DNA from: Candidatus Odinarchaeia archaeon
Lineage (GTDB): Archaea; Asgardarchaeota; Odinarchaeia; Odinarchaeales; Odinarchaeaceae
Length of the DNA stretch: 27,700 nt
NCBI GenBank assembly: GCA_029856525.1
Contig: JAHQXC010000008.1
Span: 1 to 27,700, forward strand
Direction of reading: 5' to 3'
Positions within the stretch are counted from its first letter, which is position 1; every line of letters begins with the position of its first letter. Shown in pieces: positions 4,802-12,295 of this stretch. The notes under the pieces are model-generated. The model worked only from the letters and a program-made list of their open reading frames with translations. It ran no database searches and was not told the DNA's origin. The position numbers and the translations under genes are program-made.

Positions 4802-6160
4802 TTGCCTGGTAGACTTTTCGGAACCACAGGGGTTAGAGGGGTTTTCAACAAAAACTTTGACGCTTACACAGCTTTAAAACTCGGTTTTTCACTAGCTACA
4901 CAACTTAAAAATGGAAGAGTACTCGTAGGAAAAGATACCAGGACGTCGGCTAATATAATCGAGGCGGCTTTACTAGCAGGCTTAACAAGCTGTGGATGTG
5001 ATGTATACAGGCTGGGGGTTGTCACCACTCCTACACTAGCTTATCTTACAAAAAAGTTTGAGTGTAAAGCCGGTGTAATGGTAACCGCCTCCCATAATCC
5101 CCCCGAATATATAGGAGTTAAATTCTGGAAGAACACGTCGCAAGGTTATACTAGAACTGAAGAAGAGGAGATTGAAAAAATATACATTGAGGGAGTATTT
5201 AACAAAGTTGAGTGGAATAAAGTTGGAAAAATATATGAGTTCAGTGAAGCTGAAAAATACCATGTTCAAGATATTATCAGCTTAATCGATTACCAAACAA
5301 TAAGGGATAGAGAGTTCAAGATTGTTTTGGATATAGGGAATGGGGCGGCTTACTCGATAGCGCCTCTTTTAACAAAAGAATTAAACTGTACTACTATAAC
5401 TTTAAACAGTCAGCCTGACGGTTTCTTTCCAGGTAGACCTTCAGCCCCCACTAAAAAGAGTTTAACCGCATTGATGAAAATTATGAGTAAAGAGGAATAT
5501 GATCTAGCAGCAGCCTTTGACGGAGATGCGGATCGCATAGTCTTCATAGATAATGAAGGGTCCTTCATACCGGGGGATGTACTTATAATCGCTTTAAGCA
5601 GATATCTATTAAAGAATAAAAAAGGTAAGATTGTAACTACAGTTGAAAGCAGCATCGCAGTTGAAGAGTATGTTAAAGCTGCTGGTGGAGAGGTTATCTG
5701 GACTCCTGTAGGAGATATTAATATAAGCGTAGCGGTTGAGGAGAATAAAGCTCTTTTAGGCGGAGAGGAGTGCGGTGTTTTTATCTGGCCGGAGTTTCAT
5801 CTAGGTCCGGATAGCTTTCTAACGTTAGCGCGTGTTCTAGAAATTTTAGCTAAAGAAAAAATTACAATGAAGAAGTTCATTAACGGTGTTCAAACATACC
5901 CTGTTATTAGAGAAAGCGTGGAGTGCCCGGATGAGAGAAAAGAACAGGTTATGAGAAGTCTTGAGAAAGCTGTTTTAAATATCAATGGAGTTCTAGATGT
6001 TAATAGAATCGACGGTTTAAATATCAAGGGGGAATGGGGTAGAGTCTTAATAAGACCTTCAGGAACCGAGCCTCTTATAAGAATAACAGCTGAAGGTAAA
6101 GATATCGTTAAATGCGAGGAGACTGTTTTAAAAATTAAGGATTTAATTAGAAATAGTTAA
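4802..6160 (+). CDS. glmM: Phosphoglucosamine mutase / phosphohexomutase family
   Basis: LFGTTGVRG, active-site TASHNPPEY, metal loop FDGDADR, GEECG, LIRPSGTEP. TTG start. Its stop overlaps the convergent roadblock stop on a shared TTAA (6157-6160). Confidence 0.9.
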   Translation: MPGRLFGTTGVRGVFNKNFDAYTALKLGFSLATQLKNGRVLVGKDTRTSANIIEAALLAGLTSCGCDVYRLGVVTTPTLAYLTKKFECKAGVMVTASHNPPEYIGVKFWKNTSQGYTRTEEEEIEKIYIEGVFNKVEWNKVGKIYEFSEAEKYHVQDIISLIDYQTIRDREFKIVLDIGNGAAYSIAPLLTKELNCTTITLNSQPDGFFPGRPSAPTKKSLTALMKIMSKEEYDLAAAFDGDADRIVFIDNEGSFIPGDVLIIALSRYLLKNKKGKIVTTVESSIAVEEYVKAAGGEVIWTPVGDINISVAVEENKALLGGEECGVFIWPEFHLGPDSFLTLARVLEILAKEKITMKKFINGVQTYPVIRESVECPDERKEQVMRSLEKAVLNINGVLDVNRIDGLNIKGEWGRVLIRPSGTEPLIRITAEGKDIVKCEETVLKIKDLIRNS

Positions 6161-6552
6161 TCGCTTAAAGGGAATAGATCAGCTATTTTCCTAGAGTAGA
6201 TTCTGAAAACTGATACAGTTGTAGTTAATGTTTTTAAACTTGAACCGGCTCCGATTAAAACAAGTTTACCCGCCCCTGATAAAACTATATACCCTTCCTC
6301 CCCTGTGATTATAACCTCCCAAAGCTCTTTTAACCCCATTTTCTCAACAGCACTCTCCCCTACATGCAACATAGCCGCGGAGATAGCTGACATTAAATCA
6401 GGGTCAACCTGCTTAGATCCGACGACCTTAAAAGCTAGTCGAACACCCTCCCTTGTAACAACAGCTAATGCTTCAAGATCGGTTTTCATAGCGATTTCGC
6501 TTAAATTTTTAGCTAAAGCCGTAGCTTTATCTTTACTAACCTTACTAGCCAT
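6157..6552 (-). CDS. Roadblock/LC7 (MglB-like) domain protein
   Basis: 131 aa with the roadblock pattern: helix, ALAVVTREG strand-turn, DLMSAISAAML helix, EVIITGEEGYIVLSGAG strands, C-terminal helix. Confidence 0.85.
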   Translation of the reverse strand: MASKVSKDKATALAKNLSEIAMKTDLEALAVVTREGVRLAFKVVGSKQVDPDLMSAISAAMLHVGESAVEKMGLKELWEVIITGEEGYIVLSGAGKLVLIGAGSSLKTLTTTVSVFRIYSRKIADLFPLSD

Positions 6553-6554
6553 AT

Positions 6555-7415
6555 TTAACCCTCGTTATTCTCGTCGGATCCCTCACCTTGGATCTCGATT
6601 TTAAAGAAGTCCACTAAGTCGCTTAAATTATATTTTAATTCGTCTCGTATAGAAGAAACCTCCTCGGTGGGTATTTCAACTGATTCAACTTTCTTCAAGA
6701 ACTCTACAGCCATCACGGAACCGTTATTAACGATTACTCGGGGAATATAATCCTCAGCTAGGAAGACACCTTCCGGAACTGTTCCGAGTGGTGCTCTTTC
6801 AAGCTTCTTCTTAATCTGTTTTTTGCCGAGAAAGTGAATCGTATGCTCGGTGACGGTGTAAACGTTATTCCCCACGATAACAAGCTCCCTCTCAAATCCT
6901 CTAGGTAACGGTATACTCTCTAGTTTTTCAAGTATACCAGAATTTTCAACACTCTCAGAGACCGTTTTAATAGTTGTAGACCGCGGGGACTCAACGCGAG
7001 TTTTCACTTCTCTGCTTTCTATAAGCGGTTCAACGCTTTTTTTAACGGTTTCAATTTCAGGTTTAACAGGTGCTTGAAGTTTTTCAGCAGGTTTCTCCTC
7101 CGTTATAGAAGGTTTCTTAACCTCAACATGTTTAGGAGATTCACCTATAGATTTAAGAAAACTATCCGATTCCTCGCCTTCATCTTCACTAGAAACTTTG
7201 TAATTTAAACCGCGCTCCTCTCGAATCTGAGAGGCGGCTCTAGCGCTTATAAATTTCTTTCGCACAGGGGCTTCAGAGCCCTTCCATATCCATATCCTTT
7301 TCTTATCATCGTCGACTATTATAAAAACCGAGTTACTTTTAAGATGATCTCTTATAGGACGGCTCCCAGTAATCTCGATTACATCCCCGTTATCTTGAAC
7401 ATCAAACAATTGCAT
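6555..7415 (-). CDS. Gelsolin-domain protein (single gelsolin domain, P/E/K-rich linker, C-terminal domain; Asgard 1DGelX-like)
   Basis: aa 1-90: LKSNSVFIIVD..RIWIWKGSEA..KKFISARAA..EDEGEESDSF matches the gelsolin-repeat pattern. Low-complexity linker at about aa 91-155, then a globular C-terminal domain. Confidence 0.82.
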   Translation of the reverse strand: MQLFDVQDNGDVIEITGSRPIRDHLKSNSVFIIVDDDKKRIWIWKGSEAPVRKKFISARAASQIREERGLNYKVSSEDEGEESDSFLKSIGESPKHVEVKKPSITEEKPAEKLQAPVKPEIETVKKSVEPLIESREVKTRVESPRSTTIKTVSESVENSGILEKLESIPLPRGFERELVIVGNNVYTVTEHTIHFLGKKQIKKKLERAPLGTVPEGVFLAEDYIPRVIVNNGSVMAVEFLKKVESVEIPTEEVSSIRDELKYNLSDLVDFFKIEIQGEGSDENNEG

Positions 7416-7451
7416 TTTATATCACTCTAATTTTAAAGCGTTTATTATTTT

Positions 7452-9071
7452 TTATTTATTATTAATATTAAAGGTTTCAGTTTTTCTAGATTTAAGCACC
7501 TCGTAAACTTTTTTATCAGGTTGAGAGATACTTAAAGTGTTTTCGAAGGCTAAAGCCTCATCTAAAGCTGCGGGGATGTAATCTATTAGCTCAGATGATG
7601 TGAAGTGGTAGCCTTTCTTATCAGCTATGAGATTACCTGATAAACCGGTTATGAATACAGCCGCACAGGCTGCTTTGAAAGGTTCAACCCCCTGGGATAG
7701 GAAACAGCCTAATATGCCTGTTAGAACATCCCCGATACCGCCCACAGTCATTCCCGGATTTCCTAGAAGGTCAAGCTTAAACATGTTTCTGTAAGCTACT
7801 AAGTCGACGGCTCCTTTAACAGTGAATGTTATATCAAACATGCTAATCTTAGCAAGTATCTCGTTAATATTAGTTAATATATCCTCGCTTGTTTTAATCT
7901 CTAAACCTGTTAACAGTTTAAATTCGCCTCTGTGAGGAGTGGCTACAGTTAGAGACCCGGCTAGCGCATTCGGATGCTCGGCTAAAACTTTCAGAGCGTC
8001 AGCGTCAATTACTAAAGGTTTATTAGCTTCTTTTATTAGAGTGAACAGTTTATAAACAGCTTCTTTTGTCTCAGCTTCAACACCCAGACCCGGGCCTAAA
8101 ACTATGGCGTCAGCCCAGTTGATTAAAGTAGAAATATATTTTACAGATTCAGGTGTAAGATATCTGCCAGGGTAATCTCTAACAATAAAGTTCGGGGTGT
8201 ACGCTCTTATAGTATTAGCTATCAGTTCAGGCGCGGAGATTATTACAAGGTCAACTCCAGCTCGAATAGCAGACATAGCTGATAGCACTGGAGCACCGTG
8301 ATATCTTTCACTGCCGCCGATTATCAGCAGTTTTCCGAAGTCCCCTTTCCTGTTCTCGAAAAACCTTCTCTTTAGCGCTGTTATAACATCGCCCGGCCCT
8401 ATTATGTATTCAACCTCTTCCGGTATGCTTATCGAAGTGACTACTAGCTCACCTAAATCCTTCTCCCGTCCTATAAACCCTTTCTTAGCTTTATGAAAGG
8501 TGATAGTTAGATCCGGTTTCACAGAAATATCCGCTGTCACACCTGTTTCAGGATCCATACCGGATGGAATGTCTATTGATATTTTCTTAGCTTTAGCTTC
8601 ATTTATCATTTTTATAGCTGTCTTCAAAGGCTCCCTGATCAGGCCTCTAACACCTGTTCCTAGGATAGCGTCTACTATTATATCAGCGCTATCCACAATC
8701 GGCTTGATTTCACGTAAATCATCTGTAGATGAGATTACATGAGTTTTAACTCGCTGATAGATTTTTTCAAGAATCTCCCAGTTTATTCTAGCTTCCTTTC
8801 TAGATATTTTATCAGGTGAACCTAAAAGCACCACGTGAACTATAGTATGAGCTGAGAGTTGCCGCGCTATCACGAACCCGTCGCCGCCGTTATTACCTGT
8901 CCCACAGAATACGATGATACGGCTATTATTAACGTTGAACCTTCTCTTAATCTCTTCGTAAGCCCCTCGACCAGCATTCTCCATTAATATAACAGGAGGT
9001 AAGCCTATAAATGCGCTGTTCAACTCTAATTCTCTCATTTTAACTGGTGTTACAGTTTCCATAGCCATCAC
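7452..9071 (-). CDS. nnr: Bifunctional NAD(P)H-hydrate epimerase/dehydratase (YjeF_N + YjeF_C)
   Basis: LMENAGRG, GTGNNGGDG, DAILGTG, DIPSG; KGDFGKLLIIGGS..YHGAP, GPGLG, DADAL, TPHRGEF, GNPGMTVGGIGDVLTG. Confidence 0.95.
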   Translation of the reverse strand: MMAMETVTPVKMRELELNSAFIGLPPVILMENAGRGAYEEIKRRFNVNNSRIIVFCGTGNNGGDGFVIARQLSAHTIVHVVLLGSPDKISRKEARINWEILEKIYQRVKTHVISSTDDLREIKPIVDSADIIVDAILGTGVRGLIREPLKTAIKMINEAKAKKISIDIPSGMDPETGVTADISVKPDLTITFHKAKKGFIGREKDLGELVVTSISIPEEVEYIIGPGDVITALKRRFFENRKGDFGKLLIIGGSERYHGAPVLSAMSAIRAGVDLVIISAPELIANTIRAYTPNFIVRDYPGRYLTPESVKYISTLINWADAIVLGPGLGVEAETKEAVYKLFTLIKEANKPLVIDADALKVLAEHPNALAGSLTVATPHRGEFKLLTGLEIKTSEDILTNINEILAKISMFDITFTVKGAVDLVAYRNMFKLDLLGNPGMTVGGIGDVLTGILGCFLSQGVEPFKAACAAVFITGLSGNLIADKKGYHFTSSELIDYIPAALDEALAFENTLSISQPDKKVYEVLKSRKTETFNINNK

Positions 9072-9076
9072 GCCGG

Positions 9077-10750
9077 TTATTCTAAGCTTGATAAATCAAC
9101 TACTGTTCCGGATAGAATTTTAGCCGGTAATAAGAGATCGCTGAAAACCTGGCTGCGGCTTGTAAACGGTATTTTACTGAAACCTAGTAGAATAAGCGGT
9201 TTAGATAGGGATGAAACCTCTGAAATGGAGCTATAAGGTTCCTCATAGGTTATTTTAACAAGCCGTTCAAGATTATAGTAGATTATATCTCTTAAAACCA
9301 GCAGTAAAGGAGCCTCATTAGTTATTAATGGTGATAGTTTTTCAACGTTTTCATTTATTTCCACGTTAATCATACCATCTTCGAGAGCGATTACCCGTTT
9401 AATCTCCTGTAAAAGTTGTTTAATTCTATCAGGGTTTTCAACATAATTCAAGGAGAAATCTAATGTTATAGAAGATAAGGAGGCTTCAGGGTTAAAGCCG
9501 TTTATACCGCTAATATTAATTTTTGAATTAGCTAAATCAATCTCCTCTAAAGGTTCTCCAGTCTCTTTGAAAAGTTTAGCAGTGTATTTTAAGAGAGCGT
9601 TGTTTAAAACATCCGGTTTTAAATGTTTTTTATCAGCGGTGAAGCTTATAGTATAAGAGATGGTCCGCTTAGGAATGATCCCTATAGAGTCGAATTCCCT
9701 GTCGACAAGCATGATCGTGTAGTCTGATTTCTTAGTGAGTTCAACGAGATAGTTCGCTTTCTCTTTCAGGTTATCACTGAATATTATATAGAAGTTAATT
9801 TTACCGGTTAGATTATATCTTTTTAAAGCTATAGCGGTCAGCGCTATGCTGATCAAGCATTTTTTAAAATACTCGATGCCATTAAGATTTAAATCTAGTA
9901 TGATATTCAGTACAGGTTTTTGAGAGTCGTCGAATATTTTTAAACAGGTGTTACCGGCCTCTAAAGAATAGTCTAACCCATTCTCTTTGAGTAATCTGAA
10001 AAGAGATCCCTCCATCCTAGGGAATTGCTCTAGTTCTCTAACTATATCGATAGCTAACAAGTCCTCGGCAATAGAGTTAAGCGTAGGCGTGTTTTTATCA
10101 AACCACTGGTAGAAGTTATAGACTTTGCTTGAAAGAGATTTAGGTGATTCAAACACTTTAGGAACGGTTAGAACGGGTTTACTTATAGTTGAAGGCTGTT
10201 TAATAGTAGGCTCAGGGATGTGAACGCCTCGCGTTAACTCTTTAGCTGAAGAAACAGCGTTTGAAGCTATTCTCATGAAAGCGTCAGCTACATTCTGATC
10301 TAGTTTAGCGCTTGTCTCAATATATTCTACTGAAAGACGCTCGCATAGTTTTTTAGCCTCCTCGTATGAAACCTCTCTAGGTAAATCGATTTTATTCCCT
10401 ACAACGATTACAGGTATTTTTTTAAGAGCTGAGATTATGTCGGCGTGCCAGGCGGGAACGCTTTCAAATGAACGCCTATTAGTTACATCATATACTATTA
10501 GAGCAGCTTTAGCGCCAGGGTAAAATGCTCTTCGAAGATCGCGGAAAAGTTCCTGGCCGCCTAAATCCCAGATTTGAAGTTTAACCTCCTCTCCGTTAAC
10601 AATCACGTTTTTAACAGCGAAGTCTGTTCCTAAAGTCTTCTTATACTCGGCGCTGAACCTGTTCTCAGTAAATCTTAAGAGAAGCGAGGTTTTACCTACA
10701 CGGCCATCTCCTACTAGAATTACTTTAAAAACATATTTTGAAGGCGGCAT
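9077..10750 (-). CDS. Rab-like small GTPase fused to a degenerate M20 (ArgE/DapE-like) fold
   Basis: aa 1-168: G1 GDGRVGKT, G2 T, G3 WDLGGQ, G4 NKID, G5 ETSAK, RabF-like LGTDF, KLQIW, FYPGA, IVYDVT. Pro-rich linker aa 170-205. The GTPase domain is near-certain; the M20-like reading of aa 206-557 is by eye only. Confidence 0.85.
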   Translation of the reverse strand: MPPSKYVFKVILVGDGRVGKTSLLLRFTENRFSAEYKKTLGTDFAVKNVIVNGEEVKLQIWDLGGQELFRDLRRAFYPGAKAALIVYDVTNRRSFESVPAWHADIISALKKIPVIVVGNKIDLPREVSYEEAKKLCERLSVEYIETSAKLDQNVADAFMRIASNAVSSAKELTRGVHIPEPTIKQPSTISKPVLTVPKVFESPKSLSSKVYNFYQWFDKNTPTLNSIAEDLLAIDIVRELEQFPRMEGSLFRLLKENGLDYSLEAGNTCLKIFDDSQKPVLNIILDLNLNGIEYFKKCLISIALTAIALKRYNLTGKINFYIIFSDNLKEKANYLVELTKKSDYTIMLVDREFDSIGIIPKRTISYTISFTADKKHLKPDVLNNALLKYTAKLFKETGEPLEEIDLANSKINISGINGFNPEASLSSITLDFSLNYVENPDRIKQLLQEIKRVIALEDGMINVEINENVEKLSPLITNEAPLLLVLRDIIYYNLERLVKITYEEPYSSISEVSSLSKPLILLGFSKIPFTSRSQVFSDLLLPAKILSGTVVDLSSLE

Positions 10751-10805: not shown

Positions 10806-11804
10806 CTATCTTCTAAGAATTGCAAGCTCTAGAATATCGTTTAAAACAGAGCTGGCTGTTTCCACTCCGCCTGCGCCTCTTCCAATCAGAGTTAAATCTT
10901 TAGCGAGATCTGTTTGAAGCTTAACCACGTTCAGTGAGCCGCTGACAGCGAAAGATGAACCGACTTCTACAAGTCTAGGAGCTACTTCTAAAACCCCGTC
11001 CTCGCTTATAGCTAAATGTTTAATTAGAAAACCGTCTTTTCGAGCCAGTTCAATAGCTTCAGGGGTTATATCCCTTATACCCTGCCTGTTAACGTCTTTA
11101 AATCGACATTCCTTTCTTAACAAAGCGTTAGATAATATTACCAGTTTAGCAGCTGCATCAATACCGTCAACGTCATAGGAGGGGTCGGCTTCAGCGAAAC
11201 CTAGCCTCTGAGCCTCTTTTAAAACGGTTTTAAAAGGCAGCTTCTCGCTTGTCATCCTAGAGAGAATATAATTGGTGGTGCCGTTTAAAATACCTTTAAC
11301 TGAGATTATTCTATTAGCGCGTAAAGTGTTTCTTACAAGATTGAAGAGGGGGATAGCTCCGGCTACAGTGGCTTCGAATAATATTCTCCTTTTCACCTGC
11401 CTCGCTAACTCCATTAATTCAGGATAGTATAATGCCAACGGACCTTTATTAGCGGTAACAACATCCATTCCATACCCTAAAGCTGTTTTTATATGTGATA
11501 GTCCTGGTTCACTCGTCTCAACATTTGTAGGTGTTAATTCTACTGCACAGTCACAGTTTAACTCTCCGGCTATTTTATTAAAATTAGCTGCTTCAACCCA
11601 CTCCTCTTCGCTTCTATAATTCTGCGAGTTAATAATTTTTTCTAAATCTAAACCGTTAGTATTTATGAACGCGCCGTCTTTCTTAAACACGCCTACGGTT
11701 TTTATTTCAACACCGTACTCGTCTAAAATCAGCTTGGATTTCTCAGCTAAAACTTTTAAAAGAGACTTTGCTACTGTACCGAAGCCTATAACAGCGATTC
11801 TCAT
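10806..11804 (-). CDS. hom: Homoserine dehydrogenase (no fused ACT domain)
   Basis: IAVIGFGTV, VVTANKGP, FEATVAGAIP, GILNGTTNYIL, EADPSYDVDGIDAAAKL, GRGAGGVETAS. Confidence 0.95.
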   Translation of the reverse strand: MRIAVIGFGTVAKSLLKVLAEKSKLILDEYGVEIKTVGVFKKDGAFINTNGLDLEKIINSQNYRSEEEWVEAANFNKIAGELNCDCAVELTPTNVETSEPGLSHIKTALGYGMDVVTANKGPLALYYPELMELARQVKRRILFEATVAGAIPLFNLVRNTLRANRIISVKGILNGTTNYILSRMTSEKLPFKTVLKEAQRLGFAEADPSYDVDGIDAAAKLVILSNALLRKECRFKDVNRQGIRDITPEAIELARKDGFLIKHLAISEDGVLEVAPRLVEVGSSFAVSGSLNVVKLQTDLAKDLTLIGRGAGGVETASSVLNDILELAILRR

Positions 11805-12295
11805 TCTCTAACACTCCTTATTAAATACAGATTTTTCTTTTTACAGATCTGTTTTAAAAGTTCAATACCTTTACTAAGCTTCTCCTCGGAATTACTCTGT
11901 AAAACCATTTTCACAGATGAAACCTCTTCTATTAAAGTTATACGCGCATCTACGCTAGCAACCTGTATACCGCTGTTAGCTATCTGTATTATAGTATCCG
12001 TGATATCTGTGGTGAAAACATGACCGATCAAGATAACAGTCTCCCTGAAGGTTTGAATATTAGGACTGTAACTTATTATTACAATCCCCTCTCTCCTCAG
12101 CGATTCAACAACAGTGTCAACGTTTACTCTATCATCAGCTTCAAACGAGATCTCAACTCTAGCTGTATCCTCTCTATCAAGCTCTCTAACATGGTGTATG
12201 TTTAAAATATTACATCCACACTCAGCTAAAGGTGTGATTATACGAGCCAGCTGGCCGGGTCTATCCGATAACTCGACTACTATCATCCCTCTCAA
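11801..12295 (-). CDS. Stand-alone tandem ACT-domain protein, probable allosteric partner of Hom
   Basis: VELSDRPGQL..GCNILNIHH (ACT signature) plus a second ACT-like repeat (VILIGHV..DITDTI). 4-bp overlap with hom. TTG start at 12295 (ATG 12286 is an alternative). Confidence 0.8.
   Translation of the reverse strand: MRGMIVVELSDRPGQLARIITPLAECGCNILNIHHVRELDREDTARVEISFEADDRVNVDTVVESLRREGIVIISYSPNIQTFRETVILIGHVFTTDITDTIIQIANSGIQVASVDARITLIEEVSSVKMVLQSNSEEKLSKGIELLKQICKKKNLYLIRSVRE

Follow-up and report, generated by a model that had tools for sequence, protein, structure and literature searches.

A conserved gelsolin-roadblock gene pair in Asgard archaea and its probably incidental Rab-like GTPase neighbour in Odinarchaeia

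The stretch of DNA analysed here (the window) comprises 27,700 nucleotides of contig JAHQXC010000008.1 from a Candidatus Odinarchaeia archaeon (assembly GCA_029856525.1), whose genome of 1.32 Mb is 93% complete. Its minus strand carries a run of four co-oriented genes that code, in order of reading, for a Rab-like GTPase that is prolonged by a lengthy C-terminal part (9077-10750, an open reading frame (ORF) of 557 amino acids (aa)), the repair enzyme Nnr (7452-9071, 539 aa, GTG start), a gelsolin-domain protein, GelX (6555-7415, 286 aa), and a roadblock protein (gene robl, 6157-6552, 131 aa). In the ORF list the GTPase gene is separated from nnr by 5 base pairs (bp), nnr from gelX by 36 bp and gelX from robl by 2 bp. 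This is how an initial annotation of this DNA had described the run, and both the ORF coordinates and the Pfam matches agree with it. Compact archaeal genomes commonly have short gaps and genes of one orientation, and for this reason the tightness of the locus is not by itself functional evidence. Judging from the gene order of other Asgard genomes, the real conserved unit is the pair of gelX and robl, often with nnr ahead. The initial annotation had seen an operon-like switch module made of three parts, GTPase, roadblock and gelsolin; the gelsolin-roadblock pair is indeed conserved, but the three-part switch finds no support, and the link to the GTPase, restricted to the order of Odinarchaeum, is lineage-specific and probably incidental.

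GelX has the known architecture of the Asgard 1DGelX/GelX proteins, i.e. one gelsolin domain, a linker and a domain designated X. An orthologue labelled Candidatus Odinarchaeum yellowstonii LCB_4 is also present in a closed genome of the same genus. In a structure model built on 43 orthologues, the N-terminal gelsolin/cofilin-type domain (aa 1-92, 7140-7415, minus strand as all the features of the run) has a predicted local distance difference test score (pLDDT) above 90. Pfam Gelsolin matches aa 23-87 of the protein (1.5e-4, 22 bits for a cut-off of 21), and the Asgard gelsolins 7whg, 7c2h and 7c2f are phmmer matches. No second gelsolin domain was found, either by Pfam or in the structure model. 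The linker that follows (aa 93-154, 6954-7139) is rich in Pro, Glu and Lys, is predicted to be disordered (pLDDT 40-53) and is poorly conserved, with zero conserved columns in the alignment (A1).

The fold of the gelsolin domain was compared by VIA-align. It superposes on ProGel of Thorarchaeota (7c2f) with Z 15.9 and a root-mean-square deviation of 1.2 Å over 87 residues, and on the domains of gelsolin, villin and Asgard 2DGel with Z 12-13.6. The gelsolin-like domains of Sec23/24 are also among the fold matches, and that of Sec23 gives the catalytic residue of the GTPase-activating protein (GAP) of Sar1 (PMC11914678); a gelsolin domain acting on a GTPase, as Sec23 does on Sar1, instead of on actin, with the roadblock as part of a trafficking-type GAP complex, would be compatible with both observations. 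However, the Sec23/24 domains reach only Z 6.4-9.5, and actin-binding gelsolins match far better (Z 12-16). Furthermore, 1DGelX of Thorarchaeota binds actin (dissociation constant 7.7 uM) and severs F-actin in vitro without calcium (Akil et al. 2020, PMC7444086), and B35_GelX of L. ossiferum is enriched in the co-immunoprecipitation of Lokiactin (bioRxiv 10.1101/2025.11.30.690169). A Sec23-like role thus appears highly improbable. By analogy with the assayed proteins, GelX is fairly likely to be an actin regulator of the 1DGelX type, and the window's protein would then act on actin as well. Actin is encoded in the window's genome. Its gene is split over two contig ends (G000:C3:5747-6319 and G000:C8:1-477), which is an assembly break and not a broken gene.

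Domain X (aa 155-270, 6606-6953) consists in the model of a helix, three strands, a short helix, two strands and a terminal amphipathic helix. The sheet has a pLDDT of about 90, and residues E177, G216, P225, R226, E238 and L240 are invariant in alignment A1. A profile of the domain (A6) detected it in 130 of the 151 Asgard genomes that make up our sample, in which families are anonymised (f1, f2 and so on). The structure search with X alone gave no relative of solved fold above Z 3.7. The best values (Z 3.7-4.4, with the whole model and with X alone) were those of Cache/GAF-like sensor domains and are at noise level; the idea of a roadblock- or profilin-like domain that would heterodimerise with the roadblock found no support. 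The cluster matches in AFDB are solely domains at the C terminus of other Asgard proteins with a gelsolin domain, a feature search of the ESM Atlas returned only unnamed Asgard clusters (0.80-0.81), and the domain appears to be specific to Asgard archaea. Beyond the last helix, GelX ends in an acidic tail in Odinarchaeum (...DENNEG) and in a strongly basic, K-rich one (...LVAK) in the Thor-type family (A1), which suggests lineage-specific contacts with membrane or actin.

The product of robl is a Roadblock/LC7 protein that includes the C-terminal helix of the full RB type. It is matched by Robl_LC7 (PF03259) at 1.6e-6 (28.2 bits for a cut-off of 23), and its solved relatives 9jue_D and 7f8m_A are found at E about 1e-5. 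The subfamily is well conserved (mean column identity of 52% over the 36 orthologues of alignment A2), and with a threshold of E<=1e-18 an orthologue is present in 111 of the 151 genomes. Each genome contains 4-19 roadblock-like candidates, among which the one adjacent to GelX is the best match to P0003. Other roadblock genes of the window's genome are worth describing. The closest paralogue of the GelX-linked one (43% identity, 218 aa; locus L067, G000:C107, 68-724) has an N-terminal roadblock domain followed by ~110 residues with no Pfam match, and has orthologues in the other genomes of the genus. Elsewhere, four roadblock/LC7 genes lie within 1.8 kb (L068, G000:C51, 2347-4758) and adjoin the gene of a hexapeptide-repeat protein that matches DCTN5 (dynactin subunit 5) at E 7e-13, above the cut-off.

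We have annotated 60 loci around orthologues of GelX or of the roadblock, and have also compared the coordinates of the roadblock and domain X matches. In 78 of the 111 orthologue-bearing genomes, belonging to 9 families, robl directly follows gelX in the same orientation, the gap ranging from -14 to 225 bp. Counted over the sampled members with the orthologue, the adjacent pair is present in all 24 genomes of the Thor-labelled family f6, in 23 of 24 in f9, 16 of 17 in f12, 4 of 4 in f15 and 2 of 2 in f23, to which are added, again without exception, four genomes of f1, three of f2 and one each of f10 and f26. Two further genomes without the adjacent pair correspond to contig ends or incomplete assemblies. 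The flanking genes vary among families, so that only gelX-robl itself is conserved, with the exception of nnr, which precedes the pair in four of them (f1, f2, f9 and f23). Both genes occur in most of the families other than f11, f17, f20 and f22, in whose sampled genomes neither domain X nor a roadblock orthologue was found, a phyletic co-occurrence that speaks in favour of the module. In the window, the stop codon of gelX (TAA, 6555-6557) ends 2 nucleotides (nt) before the ATG of robl, and a Shine-Dalgarno (SD)-like motif, GAGGGT, can be read inside the end of gelX (6558-6563), 6-11 nt 5' of this ATG. From the 2-bp gap and this motif, the two genes are apparently translationally coupled.

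The fixed order and the near-zero spacing maintained in many lineages are typical of the subunits of one complex. The initial annotation had suggested modelling the C-terminal domain of the gelsolin with its possible partners, and we have predicted the complex between the roadblock and residues 150-286 of GelX, using a separate alignment for each chain. The interaction prediction score from aligned errors (ipSAE) was 0.56 (runs 0.55-0.57), against 0.00-0.01 for the controls (best control 0.01). The runs share at least 81% of the contacts, with a partner pLDDT of 82 or more. For calibration, 58 out of 80 solved complexes passed the ipSAE mark, as did 2 of 110 mismatched pairs; passes at or below 0.60 include just 7 of the 80 solved complexes and yet both passing mismatches, and hence a value of 0.56 gives weak support to the pairing. 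Taking the strong prior from gene order together with this prediction, a physical association of GelX and the roadblock would have chances a little above even.

Several observations weigh against a GelX-roadblock module acting on actin. The complex score lies in the band of weak values, and the prediction reported no interface. The two genes lie apart in 31 genomes from 11 families (f3, f4, f5, f13, f14, f16, f18, f21, f24, f25 and f27). Families f7, f8 and f19 have GelX but yielded no orthologue of this roadblock, so that the partnership is not obligatory (in one f7 genome a gene of 270 aa that lies downstream of GelX was examined as a divergent roadblock and discarded, with an hhalign probability of 0.7%). 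A search of proteins with 231-2000 aa gave, at E<=1e-8, neither a fusion of GelX and roadblock nor a longer form of the roadblock, which is weak evidence. Finally, that the 1DGelX assayed from Thorarchaeota belongs to this same family we infer from its architecture and from the single X-domain gene of each Thor-type genome (profile A6, about 1e-49); the Thor-labelled orthologues match the GelX family profile at E about 1e-105.

The weak complex score, and the splitting of the pair in 11 families with neither gene lost, would also fit a co-regulation of GelX and roadblock in one process without mutual binding, in which the roadblock dimer would act on a small GTPase encoded elsewhere and adjacency would reflect co-expression only. 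In addition, Asgard GTPases generally do not share operons with their roadblock/longin regulators (Tran et al., PMC10933270), so that such a distant partner is plausible. What makes such an arrangement unlikely is the fixed order and near-zero spacing already described, together with the distance that separates the complex prediction from its controls. Considered as a whole, the explanation by a GelX-roadblock module, in which domain identities and linkage are observed and the binding and effect on actin would follow from them, seems reasonably probable to us.

The G domain of the GTPase (aa 1-180, 10211-10750) is Rab-like and has intact motifs. Those recognised by eye are the P-loop GDGRVGKT, the switch II DLGGQ, NKID and SAK, and Pfam Ras matches aa 9-164 at 2e-53 (180.7 bits). 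The closest solved chain is the Rab of Thorarchaeota 7EZB (E 2e-40), followed by the eukaryotic Rab1/8/14/35, and on its sequence the domain is a Rab-family small GTPase. No C-terminal prenylatable Cys motif was found in the protein, which ends in ...DLSSLE after an extension of 377 aa (9077-10210). This extension gave no Pfam match and its BLAST relatives are confined to the genus, while its direct comparison with M20 by hhalign gave a probability of 28% (E 6e-4). Its origin can be traced by transitive homology and synteny. The extension of the window's protein matches the Odinarchaeia protein P0018 at E 2e-42, and the C terminus of P0018 matches the M20 domain of P0005, from family f2, at E 9e-8. 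The syntenic f2 orthologues of the GTPase are recognised by Pfam as Peptidase_M20 (6e-18) and M20_dimer (2e-8). It is therefore a degenerate M20 domain of the ArgE/DapE type. The proteins P0005, P0153 and P0155 of f2 are labelled 'Candidatus Hodarchaeota' at NCBI; a genome search places their genomes in the order of Odinarchaeum, and the label may be wrong.

The same fusion exists in proteins labelled Freyarchaeota and Jordarchaeales (Frey/Jord), which align with DapE/ArgE over the whole enzyme at E 1e-33 to 1e-31. We have scored an alignment of the M20 domains (A5) at the DapE-type metal and catalytic positions H67, D100, E134/E135, E163 and H349. P0007 and P0009 retain all of them, and P0008, P0014 and P0016 have a Gly at the position of E163. 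The f2 proteins lack D100, E134/135, E163 and H349, and the window's genus has substitutions at all six positions together with a deletion of 23 residues. The decay of the deacylase site is thus stepwise from the Frey/Jord-type proteins to Odinarchaeum (P0005-P0018). Judged by these residues, the C-terminal domain of the window's protein is a catalytically dead M20 pseudoenzyme. The pseudo-M20 domain named in the initial annotation is in this way upheld by the homology chain, by the synteny with f2 and by the loss of the metal and catalytic positions.

Roadblock proteins are known regulators of small GTPases, as in MglB-MglA and Ragulator-Rag. A GTPase-to-actin switch in Odinarchaeia, in which the Rab-like GTPase, the roadblock as its cognate GAP or regulator and GelX would be co-expressed and the pseudo-M20 domain would serve as input, could draw on this precedent, on the four closely spaced co-oriented genes (gaps of 5, 36 and 2 bp) and on the intact catalytic motifs of the G domain. 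The four-gene block is found in the sister family f2 as well, where the GelX identity is only 47-52%. Yet a phosphoglucomutase-type (PGM) gene and a 958-aa ORF have likewise remained in place between f1 and f2, so that keeping the GTPase there is on a par with background synteny. The Rab-M20 gene adjoins gelX-robl only in the order of Odinarchaeum (f1 and f2), and even there the housekeeping gene nnr stands between them. Among the 151 genomes, open frames of at least 587 aa matching the M20 part are found only in f2, f7 and f19, while f1 has a degenerate version. The fusion of f7 and f19 is far from GelX (for example at 1.41 Mb in genome G040, with GelX at 2.37 Mb), and neither of these two families yielded an orthologue of this roadblock at E<=1e-18.

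Conversely, 15 of the sampled families have the roadblock subfamily but gave no Rab-M20 fusion (these are 18 of the 20 orthologue families minus f1, f2 and f3, the matches in f3 being shorter than the fusions). Outside the order of Odinarchaeum, a Rab/Ras gene lies within about 6 kb of just one of 29 GelX-Robl loci, which is no enrichment. In the Frey/Jord loci (L061-L066) the neighbours of Rab-M20 are genes for thioredoxin-reductase-like, NUDIX and RpiA proteins. The context of NUDIX, Rab-M20 and RpiA is conserved in these loci, and nnr is ~5.5 kb away in those labelled Jordarchaeales. Gene neighbourhood in relatives was the check that the initial annotation had proposed for its module, and there the gelsolin and roadblock genes are linked and the GTPase gene is not. 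The comparison thus lends no support to this roadblock as a cognate regulator of the GTPase, and we consider a switch of this kind, also as one specific to Odinarchaeia, quite improbable.

The remaining member of the run, nnr, codes for a bifunctional NAD(P)HX epimerase/dehydratase, a housekeeping repair enzyme with YjeF_N (1e-44) and Carb_kinase (1e-53) in one protein by Pfam. It is found directly 5' of gelX-robl in the four families mentioned above (loci L011, L014, L037-L043, L056 and L057), and this may be the ancestral gene order. Upstream of the GTPase gene the co-oriented run extends to a homoserine dehydrogenase (10806-11804), after a gap of 55 bp, and further to an ACT-domain gene (11801-12295). 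At the other end, the PGM gene (4802-6160, plus strand) is convergent with robl and overlaps it by 4 bp. TATA-like A/T-rich boxes and SD-like motifs are present in both the 55-bp and the 36-bp gap. On balance it is probable that the four-gene run is a composite of a gelX-robl core, an old nnr neighbour and a separate Rab-M20 gene family.

We propose that gelX and robl would form a two-gene module inherited across much of the Asgard archaea, of which nnr would be an old housekeeping neighbour. The roadblock would most likely bind domain X or the terminal helix of GelX, and would be the regulatory or adaptor subunit of GelX-Robl, setting where or when GelX acts on actin. The Rab-like GTPase-M20 fusion would be a separate family, which came to lie upstream in the order of Odinarchaeum by happenstance and is probably not the partner of the roadblock. 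The roadblock might nevertheless bridge GelX to a small GTPase, either the Rab-pseudo-M20 protein, in Odinarchaeia, or, in other lineages, a GTPase whose gene lies elsewhere. The chances are clearly against such bridging, although it is a less doubtful proposal than the switch discussed above. If true, GelX-Robl would be a prokaryotic effector for the control of actin severing by the Ras superfamily, and a forerunner of eukaryotic GTPase-to-actin signalling.

To our knowledge, only profilins and gelsolins have so far been implicated in the regulation of actin in Asgard archaea, a subject that bears on the origin of eukaryotic cells. A roadblock gene beside that of an assayable actin-severing protein provides a concrete pair for which one member, 1DGelX of Thorarchaeota, has already been purified, and makes the roadblock a candidate partner for the unexplained domain X. 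We have found no description of the gelsolin-roadblock pair in the literature on Asgard gelsolins, roadblock proteins, GTPases or GelX, and the pair represents a variant form of a known actin regulator, accompanied by a previously undescribed and probably physical partner.

The closest known system is that of the 1DGelX/GelX proteins, whose architecture is that of the window's protein: one gelsolin/cofilin-type domain at the N terminus, then a long linker and, at the C terminus, an uncharacterised domain X. The published proteins are treated as stand-alone, with X described as a coiled coil or as disordered (PMC7444086 and bioRxiv 10.1101/2025.11.30.690169), whereas here X is modelled as a compact beta-rich domain and a dedicated roadblock gene lies downstream. 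The Odinarchaeia GelX is also shorter (286 aa) and has an acidic tail, in contrast to the basic tail of other lineages. As for the GTPase gene, the Frey/Jord fusions resemble the M20 deacylases of the ArgE/DapE/LysK type (for example DapE 5vo3 and 3ic1) over the whole of the enzyme, with all DapE-type ligands kept in P0007 and P0009; unlike in these enzymes, the domain is here fused behind a Rab-like G domain, and the window's genus has lost the site.

The likeness to MglB-MglA and Ragulator-Rag resides in a roadblock-fold protein encoded near a small GTPase, the present one being of the full RB type with its C-terminal helix. In this case, however, the GTPase neighbour is not conserved and the conserved neighbour is an actin regulator; besides, the GTPase is Rab-like and not MglA- or Rag-like, and has no roadblock domain of its own. 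Matching Asgard GTPases with their roadblock/longin partners is considered hard, as they are rarely found in operons (PMC10933270). An operon of a LAMTOR1-like roadblock, a Rab-like GTPase and a DENN protein has been described in Asgard archaea (Liu et al., bioRxiv 10.1101/2020.10.19.343400). Like it, gelX-robl is among the few conserved Asgard neighbourhoods that include a gene of the roadblock superfamily, but its roadblock is accompanied by a gelsolin-domain protein and by no conserved GTPase.

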